This document shows positions 24,748 through 50,869 of a stretch of 64,000 nt of DNA, piece after piece. A program made the translations under genes and the position numbers. Under the pieces are notes generated by a model. That model ran no database searches. It saw nothing but the letters and a program-made list of their open reading frames with translations, and was not told the origin of the DNA. The stretch is from contig JBAJNM010000004.1 in the NCBI GenBank assembly GCA_036881865.1, positions 3,736-67,735 on the forward strand, in the 5' to 3' direction. The first letter of the stretch is position 1; the number at the start of each line of letters is the position of its first letter. The stretch comes from Parvularculales bacterium (lineage in GTDB: Bacteria; Pseudomonadota; Alphaproteobacteria; JAPOUT01; JBAJNM01).

Positions 24748-25593
24748 ATGAAGTTTGAAGGTACAAAAAATTACATTGCTACAGAAGACCTGCGCGTTGC
24801 AGTAAACGCCTCTATCACCCTTGAGCGGCCCTTGCTCATCAAGGGTGAACCGGGAACGGGTAAAACCGTACTGGCAGAAGAGGTCGCCAAATCGCTGGGT
24901 CTTGACCTCCTCACCTGGCATATTAAATCCACTACCAAGGCTCAGCATGGTCTTTACGAGTATGATGCCATCACGCGTCTGCGGGACTCGCAACTAGGCG
25001 ACGAACGCGTCAAGGACGTGAAGAACTATATCCATCGTGGCCGCCTTTGGGATGCCTTTGATGCCTCCTCACGCCTCGTTTTACTGATTGACGAAATTGA
25101 TAAAGCAGACATTGAGTTTCCCAACGACTTGCTACAAGAACTGGACCGCATGGAGTTTTTCGTCCATGAGACAGGCGAGACTATCCACGCCCGTCAACGT
25201 CCCATTGTCATCATCACCTCCAATAACGAAAAAGAACTACCGGATGCCTTCCTGCGGCGGTGCTTCTTCCATTACATAAGATTTCCCGATACAGAAACCA
25301 TGCAGCAGATTGTTGATGTCCACTTTCCGGGACTCAAATCCAGGCTTGTAGCCGAAGCCCTCAAGGTGTTTTATGAAATCCGTGAAGCGCCCGGCCTTAA
25401 GAAAAAGCCCTCCACCTCAGAACTACTAGACTGGCTTAAACTGCTACTCAGCGAAGATATTTCTCCGGAGATTTTGCGCGAGCGGGACCCCACGAAGTTG
25501 ATACCACCTCTTCACGGTGCTCTGCTCAAAAACGAACAAGACGTTCACCTGTTTGAACGCCTTGCCTTTCTCGCCCGAAGGGAGAGAAATTAG
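24748..25593 (+). CDS. MoxR-family AAA+ ATPase (CoxD-like)
   Basis: Walker A GEPGTGKT and Walker B LLIDEIDK. Confidence 0.8.
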   Translation: MKFEGTKNYIATEDLRVAVNASITLERPLLIKGEPGTGKTVLAEEVAKSLGLDLLTWHIKSTTKAQHGLYEYDAITRLRDSQLGDERVKDVKNYIHRGRLWDAFDASSRLVLLIDEIDKADIEFPNDLLQELDRMEFFVHETGETIHARQRPIVIITSNNEKELPDAFLRRCFFHYIRFPDTETMQQIVDVHFPGLKSRLVAEALKVFYEIREAPGLKKKPSTSELLDWLKLLLSEDISPEILRERDPTKLIPPLHGALLKNEQDVHLFERLAFLARRERN

Positions 25594-25717
25594 AAAACTG
25601 TTGAAGTTTTAAAGCAACGCACCATTCATGGAAGAGCGAACTTGACACAGAACCAGAGAAATCATCATTATTGTGGATGGTTCGTATATAGCTTGGATTA
25701 TGGCGTAGGGGTATCCT

Positions 25718-26908
25718 ATGTTTGTTGACTTTTTCCATGAATTGCGTCGTGCCAGTGTGCCGGTCTCCCTGCGGGAATACCTAACCCTGCTGGAGGCGGT
25801 AGACGCCGATATCATTCACCGCAACGTAGAGGACTTCTACTATCTCTCCCGTTCGGCACTGGTAAAAGACGAACGCAACCTAGACCGCTTTGACAGAGTG
25901 TTTTCCCATGTCTTCCGAGGGCTGGACTCCCCGGATAATGATGAAGTTGCCGAAATCCCTGAAGAATGGCTCAAAGCCCTCACGGAAAAATTTCTTACCG
26001 AAGAAGAAAAAGCAGAAATTGAATCTCTCGGTGGCTGGGAAAAAATCATGGAGACTCTGCGCAAGCGTCTTGAAGAGCAAGAAAAACGTCACGAAGGCGG
26101 CAATAAATGGATAGGAACCGGCGGCACCTCTCCCTTTGGCGCTCAGGGCTATAACCCGGAAGGTGTGCGCATCGGTCAGGAGAAAGGCCGTCACGGCAAG
26201 GCCATTAAAGTTTGGGACAAGCGGGAATACCGCAACCTTGACGACACAGTGGAACTCGGAACCCGCAACATCAAAATGGCTCTGCGTCATTTGCGTCGAT
26301 TTGCACGGGCAGGCGCACCGGAAGTGCTGGATTTGGATGATACCATCCGCTCAACTGCCAACTCGGGCTATCTGGATATCAAACTTATACCGGAACGGCG
26401 CAATGCTATTAAAGTTTTGCTGTTTTTTGATATCGGCGGCTCCATGGATGGCCACATCAAACTATGTGAGGAACTCTTTTCTGCTGCGCGGATGGAATTC
26501 AAAAACATGGAGTATTTCTACTTCCACAACTGCCTCTATGAAGACGTCTGGAAGGATAATCGACGGCGATATTCGGAAAAAATACCAACATGGGATGTGC
26601 TCCACAAATATCCGTCCGACTACAAAGTAATCTTCGTAGGCGACGCCAGTATGAGCCCCTATGAAATCACATACGCAGGAGGCTCTGTAGAGCACTGGAA
26701 TGAAGAACCGGGCGGCCTATGGATTGACCGCGTTGCCCAGACTTACGAAAGCGTTGTATGGCTTAATCCGGTGGCGACAAAACACTGGGATCATACGCCG
26801 TCCATTCAGCTAATCCAGCAACTGATCGGAGATCGCATGTTTCCTCTCACCCTTGGTGGTCTGGATGAAGCCATGCGAGAACTACGCCGCCATAACACTT
26901 TAGGATAA
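25718..26908 (+). CDS. VWA domain-containing protein (CoxE-like partner of MoxR)
   Basis: 396 aa. The C-terminal VWA region (LLFFDIGGSMDG) carries a DxGxS MIDAS-like motif. Confidence 0.75.
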   Translation: MFVDFFHELRRASVPVSLREYLTLLEAVDADIIHRNVEDFYYLSRSALVKDERNLDRFDRVFSHVFRGLDSPDNDEVAEIPEEWLKALTEKFLTEEEKAEIESLGGWEKIMETLRKRLEEQEKRHEGGNKWIGTGGTSPFGAQGYNPEGVRIGQEKGRHGKAIKVWDKREYRNLDDTVELGTRNIKMALRHLRRFARAGAPEVLDLDDTIRSTANSGYLDIKLIPERRNAIKVLLFFDIGGSMDGHIKLCEELFSAARMEFKNMEYFYFHNCLYEDVWKDNRRRYSEKIPTWDVLHKYPSDYKVIFVGDASMSPYEITYAGGSVEHWNEEPGGLWIDRVAQTYESVVWLNPVATKHWDHTPSIQLIQQLIGDRMFPLTLGGLDEAMRELRRHNTLG

Positions 26909-26928
26909 ATCTGAAGAAGTACTTTCAT

Positions 26929-27642
26929 ATGATAGATATTAATTTTAATGTTTTTTCTGATACGCCTGAGGGAAAAGATCCGGATTCTCATAGTCCTACA
27001 CTTAGAAAGTATCATCAAATTCTATGGAATAAAAAATTACCTAACGGTAAGAATTTTAAATTAGATCTTGATACCCCAAAATTACTTCACCACAAATCAG
27101 ATTTAGGGGAATTTTATTTATCAAGTGATCAGATCACAAATACTTATAGTGACGTAAAAAAGATGTCACATATAATCAATCAACTCACGCATGATGAAAT
27201 CAATAGTTTTTCTTCTATTCGTGCCACAATTGCAGGACATATGATTTTTCCATCAAAAAAAATTGATAACAAAATGACAATTAATGGCGCTAGAGGATGG
27301 GATCGTAAAATACAAGATAGATTTGATCTTACCTTAGAATGTATCAGACTTTTTTATATGAAAAAAAGCAGTCCATTAAGTGACGTATTTCAGCGTTATT
27401 CCTCTTTCTTTTTACTCTTTGATAATTTTAAAGGGTATGTGGATTTTTTTCTTTTACAAGATTTAGTTGATCAAGATTATGCCTCAATCAAGTTTTGGCA
27501 TCCTTTTACTGGTTTTCAAGATTCTCCACTGCCCCAAAATGCATCAGAGTATCGTGAGTATAGAAATAGAGTTATAAAACTTTTAAATGGACGAAATCAA
27601 AGAGTTTTAGAATTTTGTAGGAATATGCCTACCGCTCAATAA
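26929..27642 (+). CDS. Hypothetical protein, AT-rich orphan; no recognisable domain
   Basis: 237 aa, clean ORF, rich in F/Y/K/N. There is a 20-nt gap after the VWA gene. Its GC is much lower than the flanks. Confidence 0.5.
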   Translation: MIDINFNVFSDTPEGKDPDSHSPTLRKYHQILWNKKLPNGKNFKLDLDTPKLLHHKSDLGEFYLSSDQITNTYSDVKKMSHIINQLTHDEINSFSSIRATIAGHMIFPSKKIDNKMTINGARGWDRKIQDRFDLTLECIRLFYMKKSSPLSDVFQRYSSFFLLFDNFKGYVDFFLLQDLVDQDYASIKFWHPFTGFQDSPLPQNASEYREYRNRVIKLLNGRNQRVLEFCRNMPTAQ

Positions 27643-27735
27643 TCTGTCCCTATGGTTTGATCCAGTTTAGATTTTAATTATAGTGTCATACATGCTTCTT
27701 AGCGTATGCCAACCATCACTAAAATATTTACTACA

Positions 27736-28356
27736 TTAACGAGCCATAGCCACTCCCCAATAATTAAATCCGGCAAAGCGGGGTGTTGAGGGCAGGTACA
27801 TAGTCTCCATGGACTCTGCTTTGAAGCCATTGCCCTCTATAAGATTAGGAATATTTCGATTAAGATGACATCCGCCCGCAATACGACGCCATAAAGGCGT
27901 TATGCGAGACTGCCAACGACGCACATTTTCATCCGGTGCACGGCCATGTTCGCAAAAAACCAGACGACCGCCCGGCTTTAACACTCTACGCATTTGATCA
28001 AGGGCTTTTTCAGGTTCCGGAATAGTGCACAAGGTGTAGGTTAGCATTACGGTGTCAACGCTGTCGTTTTCCAGAGGAATTTCTTCTCCCGGAAGACCTA
28101 TAAACTCCACGTCAAAAGAAAGCTCCTCTGCACGTTTTTTGGCCATCGCTCTTAACTCACCAGACGGGTCAAGACCTATAACCCGATTAATCCGTGCCGC
28201 ATCATAAAACGGCAAATTAAGCCCCGACCCAATACCAACCTCCAGCACTAGCCCCTCTGCCAGAGGTACAACTTTCTGACGTTGATAGCGCACCGGCTTG
28301 CTACCACAAGCCAAATCAAGAACATGCGGTAATATCCAGCGTTGATAAATCCCCAT
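27736..28356 (-). CDS. Class I SAM-dependent methyltransferase (Methyltransf_11)
   Basis: Motifs LEVGIGSGLNL and LKPGGRLVF. Confidence 0.7.
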   Translation of the reverse strand: MGIYQRWILPHVLDLACGSKPVRYQRQKVVPLAEGLVLEVGIGSGLNLPFYDAARINRVIGLDPSGELRAMAKKRAEELSFDVEFIGLPGEEIPLENDSVDTVMLTYTLCTIPEPEKALDQMRRVLKPGGRLVFCEHGRAPDENVRRWQSRITPLWRRIAGGCHLNRNIPNLIEGNGFKAESMETMYLPSTPRFAGFNYWGVAMAR

Positions 28357-50163: not shown

Positions 50164-50869
50164 GATGACCGAAGAAGAACTTGAAGAACTTATCGAGAAC
50201 TGTCCTAAACTTTATCATATGGCCGAAAGAGGCTCTTGGTCTTCAATAGAAAAACAAGGTTTATTCAGCACAAGTGCACTCCTTGACCTGTATGGTTATA
50301 CAGGGGAAGAGCGATAAGCCATAGAAGAGAGATGGCGATCAAAATCAAAACCCATAGAAGAACAGCATCGCCAAGAATGTGTTGATATTAACAATCCCTC
50401 TTTACCAAGAGGTGTGGTGATAAGAGACCAAGGCCCCATGAGCGAGGAAGATCTTCAGCAATGCTTGCCTAAGGACATTACACCTGCCGACTGGTATAGG
50501 ACGCTAAATAGAAAGGTTTTCTTTTGGTTAACAGAAGAAAGATTATTTAGACTGACTTCAGCAAGAGCCTACAGAAATAGAAAACATGATGTCCTCGAAA
50601 TATGCACACACTCTCTAATCGAAGCACACCGAAGTAAAATATGGCTTTGTCCTATAAATAGCGGATTTGCAAAATTTCACAACAGAAGAGACCATAATAC
50701 TTTTTCAAGAATCTGTTGTTACCCATATGGGGAGATGAAGAAGAAAGACCAAGCAGGAAAACCATGGGTGGTAGAATTGACCGTTGACTATTCAGTTCCT
50801 GATATTGCGCAGCATGTTGTAAGTGTTAAGGAGATACAGGGGAAAACAACAATCTCAACTATAAAATAG
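50164..50869 (+). pseudogene. Disrupted gene for an ADP-ribosyltransferase-fold (DarT/DUF4433-like) protein. The N-terminal segment is at 50164..50316, stopped by a TAA at about 50314-50316, and the remainder is the listed ORF 50414..50869
   Basis: An AGGAGGG RBS precedes an ATG giving MTEEELEELIENCPKLYHMAERGSWSSIEKQGLFSTSALLDLYGYTGEER followed by a stop. Downstream, VVIRDQGPMSEE...ADWYRTLNRKVFFWLTEERLFRL...KPWVVELTVDYSVPDIAQHVV continues the same protein architecture. The N-terminal LYH...GL motif and central VFFW resemble DarT. GC is lower than both flanks. Confidence 0.5.

Follow-up and report, generated by a model that had tools for sequence, protein, structure and literature searches.

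The DUF1524 or GmrD domain (PF07510) is the His-Me-finger (HNH-like) nuclease domain of the GmrSD family of type IV restriction enzymes, which are antiphage proteins that sense modifications; it is found in BrxU (7P9K) and GmrSD, in the C-terminal domain of SspE (7DRI) and in DndI (9JFL). In these enzymes it is accompanied by DUF262, an NTPase or sensor domain; in GmrSD, this is an N-terminal ParB-like NTPase, either fused or encoded by an adjacent gene. The nuclease motif of BrxU is DHIYP (PMC8565348), with its catalytic Asp-His pair at D474/H475, and the catalytic set of GmrD comprises D113, H114, N169 and N178 (PMC4619093). A published structural prediction has independently assigned the same nuclease-type fold to the Pfam family DUF6994 (PF22507), in which the catalytic His is replaced by Ala and two aspartates, not specified there, are invariant (PMC11701544); this is the only paper in which we found a mention of DUF6994 or PF22507. 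Here, we describe a DUF6994 gene in a stretch of 64 kb, referred to as the window in the following, from a metagenome-assembled genome (MAG) of a Parvularculales bacterium, where it directly follows the genes for a MoxR-type AAA+ ATPase and its VWA-domain neighbor (moxR and vwa). We consider it probable that this is a solo, horizontally acquired gene at the end of a housekeeping operon, which would encode an autonomous, nucleic-acid-acting conflict enzyme with an Asp-based active site that is independent of MoxR-VWA.

The gene encodes a protein of 237 aa, deposited in GenBank as MEG9861266.1 under the label ‘hypothetical protein’. A first-pass annotation, made from the DNA alone, had described it correctly as an open reading frame (ORF) of this length and low GC content, located on the same strand as the preceding genes after a gap of 20 nt, but had called it an orphan with no assignable family. 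This is refuted by a profile search, in which Pfam DUF6994 matches with E = 9.4e-90 and 300.7 bits against a cut-off of 27, with residues 2–226 of the protein covering positions 1–226 of the 226-position model. The annotation had been prepared to give up its proposal of an acquired cargo gene upon a confident match to a housekeeping family; the match is confident, but DUF6994 is neither a housekeeping nor a characterized family. For this genome, the ‘hypothetical protein’ or orphan label can be corrected to that of a family member with a predicted fold.

The family is large. A word-indexed search returned 6152 homologs, the majority on marine metagenome contigs and the closest non-self match at 73% identity, and 1551 cluster representatives at the 50% identity level reached E <= 1e-3 in an exhaustive HMMER search. 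Most members are stand-alone proteins of 235–250 aa, and the single annotated fusion partner among the longer ones is DUF6508, for which we found no literature. NCBIfam and PHROGs yielded zero matches to the window protein. The window copy shares the single-domain architecture of about 235 aa with most other members, retains all the family-invariant residues and shows no structural difference from them. It differs in its site directly after a housekeeping moxR-vwa pair, which is unique among the loci examined, and in lacking the Exo_endo_phos (EEP) partner that about a quarter of its relatives have. As Pfam and PMC11701544 have described both the family and the predicted fold, the window gene is a further member of an uncharacterized family.

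By its composition, the gene is foreign to its surroundings. It has a GC content of 0.308 and a GC content at third codon positions (GC3) of 0.206, compared with 0.49–0.52 and 0.42–0.55, respectively, in eight nearby genes. When 714-nt windows are drawn over the whole 64 kb (mean GC 0.498, standard deviation 0.032), the lowest, with 0.304, lies at 26901, about 6 standard deviations under the mean, and all others have at least 0.39. The transitions are sharp, from 0.54 (26791–26890) to 0.31 (26891–27735) and back to 0.51 (27736–27835). The bias extends to the protein, which is richer than its neighbors in Phe (8.0 vs 3.5%), Lys (8.0 vs 4.2%), Asn (6.8 vs 2.7%) and Tyr (3.8 vs 2.5%), as the first-pass annotation had noted; its observations of an AT-rich 3' flank and of the absence of transmembrane segments are likewise confirmed, the latter by a maximal 19-residue Kyte-Doolittle hydropathy of 0.97. 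The features of the locus are listed in Table 1.

Table 1. Features of the DUF6994 insertion and of the genes framing it; positions refer to the 64-kb window.
Feature	Position	Strand	Basis and remarks
MoxR-type AAA+ ATPase gene	24748..25593	+	PF00004, PF07728
Native part of vwa (VWA_CoxE)	25718..26890	+	PF05762; conserved alphaproteobacterial gene
Foreign low-GC segment, 845 nt	26891..27735		GC 0.310; extends from the native vwa end up to the stop codon of the convergent methyltransferase gene
Five extra codons (HNTLG) and stop on VWA	26891..26908	+	Comparison of VWA C-termini
DUF6994 (PF22507) gene, 237 aa	26929..27642	+	Intact, full length
Codons of the D17-P18-D19 motif	26977..26985	+	D17 and D19 invariant family-wide in alignments
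Residues 104–123 (HMIFPSKKIDNKMTINGARG)	27238..27297	+	Presumed remnant of the beta-beta-alpha-metal core; model and conservation
Residues 130–137 (DRFDLTLE)	27316..27339	+	R131 and D133 invariant, D130 and E137 nearly so
AT-rich 3' flank	27643..27735		GC 0.333; without recognizable element
S-adenosylmethionine (SAM)-methyltransferase gene	27736..28356	-	PF08241; native, convergent, marks the right edge of the insert

The left edge of the foreign segment can be placed, by our reading of the sequences, through a comparison of VWA C-termini. The full vwa gene as read in the window spans 25718..26908 (+) and encodes 396 aa, whereas 11 of 13 relatives have a VWA of 391 residues with the C-terminus ‘...ELxR*’. 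As the five additional residues and the new stop codon lie in the inserted AT-rich DNA, the native stop codon of vwa was replaced by the insertion. The DUF6994 gene starts with an ATG 20 nt past the new stop at 26908. The surrounding genes are native: the closest relatives retain the order alaS-recA-moxR-vwa ... methyltransferase-FNR, with methyltransferase orthologs (58–64% identity) downstream of vwa in four surveyed loci (L009, L012, L013 and L027), and the stretch that follows vwa in them is variable, but of native composition.

To see how widespread the arrangement is, one genome per species was scanned with the VWA protein, which gave at least 597 confirmed relatives. The best 80 of these, 68–81% identical and drawn from Parvibaculales, Parvularculales, Caulobacterales, Hyphomicrobiales and others, form the set of vwa loci referred to here. 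Over a distance of 5 kb from vwa, DUF6994 homologs are absent from all 80. Together with the sharp GC steps, this absence bears out the proposal of the first-pass annotation that foreign cargo had been placed right behind vwa. The window copy itself is an ordinary single-gene acquisition.

The DNA around the gene gives few further hints. Its similarity to homologs (at most 74%) is limited to the coding region, and the flanks resemble none of those at 103 homolog loci. The fold of the 3' flank does not differ significantly from that of shuffled sequences (z = -0.03), an Rfam scan of 26500–28000 yielded nothing above the gathering score, only sub-threshold snoRNA noise, and the closest tRNA is 6.6 kb away. 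A direct repeat with 15 of 19 identical positions at 26716–26734 (CCTATGGATTGACCGCGTT, within vwa) and 27649–27667 (CCTATGGTTTGATCCAGTT, just past the DUF6994 stop) does not match the GC boundaries and has probably arisen by chance. An integron gene cassette was considered and rejected, given that an attC-like fold and framing inverted repeats are absent and that the cassette ends are not shared with other copies. We found no terminator-like site in the 3' flank and neither a promoter-like nor a terminator-like site between vwa and the ORF; read-through transcription from vwa is therefore plausible, and judging from the sequence, the DUF6994 gene is probably expressed in this way.

A second case of foreign DNA at this position was seen in another genome. 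In a related Rhodobiaceae MAG (SI074_bin84; locus L018, 6469–8126), two low-GC ORFs (0.41 vs 0.51) lie on the minus strand 293 nt downstream of vwa. They encode proteins of 324–325 and 224–225 aa without any Pfam match, for which PADLOC reports only a weak, sub-threshold similarity to CARF (E = 0.009, 13 bits). This second insertion of foreign DNA arose independently, which suggests that the vwa 3' end is permissive for such events.

The functional interpretation starts from the predicted structure. An AlphaFold2 model, built from 47 homologs, has a mean pLDDT of 91.1 and a pTM of 0.89. In this model, the protein adopts the fold of the DUF1524 nuclease domain, as seen by its three-dimensional likeness to solved domains of this type. 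To find the residues that the family has conserved on this scaffold, we aligned 58 sequences including the window protein, whose other members are 36–53% identical to it. Fifteen columns are invariant (D17, D19, S22, L25, W33, S66, D67, P108, N119, R131, D133, Y143, P149, F164 and R222), all of which are present in the window protein, and eight more are nearly so (H29, K35, R122, G123, D130, E137, C138 and R140). D130, R131, D133 and E137 in the DRFDLTLE segment are candidate acidic catalytic or metal-binding positions.

The presumed core remnant consists, in the model, of a strand (104–108) and a helix (118–124). The strand ends at the invariant P108 and reads H-M-I-F-P in the window protein and x-(A/I/M)-I-F-P in relatives; the invariant N119 follows in T-I-N119. 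By motif and secondary structure, rather than by superposed coordinates, IFP108 would correspond to I-Y-P in the DHIYP motif of BrxU, which would place M105 at the position of the catalytic His. On the same grounds, DUF6994 appears to have kept the proline and one asparagine, while the position of the general-base His has become hydrophobic, in agreement with the view of the Pfam authors.

This places DUF6994 close to, but not within, the DUF1524 domain. The catalytic Asp-His dyad is not conserved, its His position being Met here and Ala, Ile or Met in relatives; of the Asn residues, one (N119) is invariant; and there is no detectable similarity at the sequence or profile level. The scaffold is DUF1524-like, but by sequence and catalytic motif the protein does not qualify as a member of DUF1524. 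Furthermore, the window protein lacks the DUF262 domain, both fused and in an adjacent gene: it consists of a single domain, and its neighbors are vwa and the methyltransferase gene. The other invariant residues (DPD at 17–19, SD at 66–67 and DRxD at 130–133) suggest a different chemistry. Similar distinctions apply to the single-gene modification-dependent restriction enzymes (DpnI-like and Mrr/McrA-type type IV). Like these, DUF6994 proteins are small, stand-alone, mobile and of low GC content, and have methyl-directed and type I restriction genes as neighbors; unlike these, they have neither a PD-(D/E)xK nor a canonical HNH motif, match no PADLOC model and are known from sequence only.

Members of the family are located among genes for restriction and nucleases. 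Homologs that are 55–73% identical to the window protein follow a type I restriction-modification operon and precede a GmrSD gene, overlap an Nmad3 gene or adjoin DpnI, sit in a variable island after glmU-glmS, have a helicase-PLD/WYL block on one side and a type I restriction-modification system on the other, or are part of a tyrosine-integrase island. In every host checked, the GC content of DUF6994 is below that of its flanks (e.g. 0.384 vs 0.567 and 0.458 vs 0.590). ORFs called around 103 DUF6994 loci yielded 127 non-redundant immediate neighbors, among which Exo_endo_phos is by far the commonest family (17), followed by glmS domains and DUF4268 (3 each) and by Nmad3, HNH, NucS_C, YhcG-PDDEXK and HD (2 each), in addition to type I restriction domains. 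In a control of 127 matched neighbors of vwa, rhodanese, TetR, LysR, histidine kinase, MFS and AAA families were found instead, and none of the nuclease families on the DUF6994 side, including Exo_endo_phos, is among the families common to at least two of these neighbors. These contexts fit the second option offered by the first-pass annotation, that of an unrelated selfish or defense-type gene.

In several loci (L003, 5381–8768; L008, 4029–8705; and L152), DUF6994 lies immediately downstream of glmU-glmS, in L008 together with a REP_ORF2-G2P-like replication gene. The site downstream of glmU-glmS is the classical Tn7-type attachment hotspot.

The association with EEP genes deserves a closer look, as it gives rise to the two most serious alternatives. 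Of the non-redundant loci, 13 of 50 (26%) with a flank of at least 1.5 kb and 8 of 27 (30%) with at least 3 kb have a gene of the EEP cluster at a distance of up to 2.5 kb. This gene is mostly convergent with DUF6994, with overlapping 3' ends, and is present as a 274-aa and/or a 229-aa gene (L089, 817–2327; also L090–L092, L107, L108, L114, L115, L124, L128, L129 and others). The EEP neighbors are short, stand-alone proteins of 226–279 aa, in which Exo_endo_phos is the only domain detected. DUF6994 also occurs in multiple copies: four consecutive paralogs of 234–236 aa with ATGA start/stop overlaps are found at L093 (6492–9317; also L094–L098), in an island with a tyrosine integrase and HIT and DUF3427/NOV_C genes, where EEP genes flank the array on both sides, and two copies each occur at L108, L110, L112, L117 and L133. 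The four L093 paralogs are 58–65% identical to each other, and each has retained all 24 of the conserved residues that were checked, including the 15 invariant ones.

A rather different arrangement was observed on the Selenomonas ruminantium plasmid pSRC2 (L105; NC_017076.1, 37456–45237). Here, DUF6994 is followed by co-directional genes for a 449-aa EEP protein, whose C-terminal half is unannotated, and a macro-domain protein; small vWA and AAA genes, a NUDIX hydrolase and a nucleoside 2-deoxyribosyltransferase are found about 4 kb further on.

The frequent pairing, the convergent overlaps, the EEP genes on either side of the arrays and the loss of the catalytic His could indicate that DUF6994 serves an EEP effector as a subunit without catalytic activity of its own, for sensing, DNA binding or regulation; the window copy, with no EEP gene near it, would then be stranded and possibly a functionless remnant. 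We regard this as unlikely, though as the strongest of the alternatives. EEP is missing in about 70–74% of the non-redundant, adequately flanked loci, hence the solo state is the norm; the 15 invariant, mostly acidic or polar columns look catalytic in a family whose members are only 36–53% identical; and in the window copy, which is intact, no invariant residue is missing.

Less probable still is a role as an immunity protein or antitoxin against EEP-type nuclease toxins, with the window copy as ‘orphan immunity’ and the tandem arrays as immunity arrays. Such a role would match the occurrence of two to four diverged paralogs beside EEP genes and the mobility of DUF6994 as single-gene, low-GC cargo. 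However, apart from the 449-aa protein on the Selenomonas plasmid, the EEP neighbors are short and have no other detectable domain, the convergent orientation is atypical for toxin-immunity pairs, and the slow evolution, the invariant acidic or polar residues and the nuclease-domain fold are unlike those of typical immunity proteins. Maintained, diversified paralogs fit a conflict gene that diversifies its specificity, and fit immunity-gene arrays less well.

A restriction-enzyme fold with a degenerate active site, now and then encoded on viral contigs, might also be expected of a phage-derived anti-restriction decoy of the DUF1524 domain that a mobile element left behind. This is very improbable, since phages very seldom carry DUF6994 (1 of 50,697 records and 5 loci in IMG/VR, next to 4 of 72,556 plasmid records), since it has no PHROG match and, when its model is searched against viral models (BFVD) with Foldseek, no significant structural match, and since its typical context is that of chromosomal islands beside restriction genes.

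The first-pass annotation had identified the upstream genes correctly as a MoxR ATPase and a CoxE-like VWA protein, an assignment supported by their Pfam matches, and had suggested that the ORF could be a third component of this pair. There are precedents for such recruitment, as the Pfam text for PF20030 (bpMoxR) describes a ‘MoxR domain in the MoxR-vWA-beta-propeller ternary systems’, and the order of AAA+ MoxR, VWA and a third gene on the same strand, here after only 20 nt and without an intervening terminator-like site, is alike in both cases. Small vWA and AAA genes are also found about 4 kb from DUF6994 on pSRC2; this is the sole place where we have seen a vWA or AAA gene near DUF6994, and it is probably coincidental. 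The window MoxR, however, scores 12.4 bits, well below the bpMoxR threshold of 27, and the window pair is of a conserved, housekeeping type in alphaproteobacteria, whereas the third gene is of foreign composition. The conserved co-occurrence that would mark a ternary system is lacking in both directions: none of the 80 vwa loci has a DUF6994 gene, and no homolog of the window's MoxR or VWA is found at any of the 103 DUF6994 loci (467 kb). The idea of a third component is therefore unsupported, and we consider it close to refuted.

Even the moxR-vwa pair is not a fixed unit. Of the 80 loci, 40 have a moxR homolog (74–85% identical) no more than 5 kb away from vwa, and it is chiefly among the closest relatives that this homolog immediately precedes vwa on the same strand. 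Their adjacency is not universal, and moxR is on the opposite strand in Bradyrhizobium-like genomes. In the window, the spacer between moxR and vwa contains a promoter-like site (25642–25671) and a terminator-like hairpin (25702–25722).

Least probable of all is an assembly chimera or a non-functional pseudogene: although the source is a MAG and exact-protein look-ups, which found no record of the VWA protein, led from the methyltransferase to just one other contig with this arrangement (Logan contig L186), possibly from the same reads, that contig was assembled separately and is 100% identical in arrangement, the window's own contig is continuous across both junctions, with native genes on either side, and the ORF is intact, full length relative to the Pfam model and has kept all invariant residues.

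The only other mild GC dip in the window (about 0.40) coincides with an ORF of 151 aa at 50414–50869 (+), flanked by ychF and a cytochrome c1-like gene. The match of this ORF to Pfam DUF7002 (E = 3.8e-43) starts only at position 59 of the 195-position model, and the ORF may be a second foreign gene that is 5'-truncated or frameshifted.

We are very confident of the identity of the window gene, its foreign origin and its independence from MoxR-VWA. That its product is an autonomous, nucleic-acid-directed defense or conflict enzyme with a non-canonical acidic active site is a more tentative proposal, which falls somewhat short of even and draws on the fold, the invariant residues and the neighborhood. 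Several results weigh against it. We found no mobility gene, integrase or target-site duplication that would account for the insertion. The modeled fold is all that links DUF6994 to DUF1524: in Pfam, PF22507 alone is reported at E <= 1, the family profile does not retrieve GmrSD-family chains from the PDB, an hhalign comparison with a genuine GmrSD neighbor gives a probability of 0.5%, and even a Foldseek search of the PDB with the model gives no significant match. There is no invariant His across the 58 sequences, and nuclease activity is uncertain for this reason. PADLOC-DB v2.0.0 has zero families that match the window protein at E <= 1, PADLOC v2 has no match for four EEP partners or for the Nmad3 neighbor, and the window copy has no EEP gene nearby. 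We found no experimental test of any DUF6994 member in the literature. Finally, we had considered the number of PADLOC-positive neighbors as evidence for defense islands, but rejected it, as the count of 60 matched models is equaled by one of 66 in the vwa control (E <= 1e-5). This count does not discriminate, because the helicase (DpdF), AAA (IetA/TRIP13) and TnpB (Cas12f) models cross-match ordinary genes; the meaningful neighbor comparison is the one based on Pfam.

The course of events that we favor is as follows. About 845 nt of DNA with a GC content of about 31%, bearing one gene, inserted exactly at the stop codon of vwa and thereby lengthened VWA by five residues. The DUF6994 gene, 20 nt downstream on the same strand, is probably read through from vwa. 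Its product combines a DUF1524-type nuclease fold, without DUF262 and with a hydrophobic residue at the catalytic His position, with the invariant residues D17, D19, S66, D67, N119, R131 and D133. Its relatives are carried as low-GC cargo in the vicinity of restriction and nuclease genes, frequently beside EEP nucleases. Its most likely role would be that of an autonomous genome-conflict enzyme that acts on nucleic acids in a defense- or restriction-like manner, independently of MoxR-VWA.

The EEP partnership, the tandem arrays, the constantly low GC content and the nuclease and restriction neighborhood are new within the literature we searched, and they are properties of the family rather than of the window copy. 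It is conceivable, if speculative, that DUF6994 represents an undescribed family of anti-phage or anti-plasmid effectors, in which the His of a His-Me-finger scaffold has been exchanged for an Asp-based site, and which act alone or with EEP, with tandem duplication as their source of diversity; in the window, we would then see a minimal one-gene immune module, expressed by virtue of its insertion at the stop codon of a housekeeping operon. For this organism, our results mean that the MoxR-VWA pair has no third component in DUF6994. For the family, they make it reasonable to include DUF6994, alone or together with EEP, in experimental defense-system screens, and they point to a possible case of a His-Me-finger scaffold with altered chemistry.

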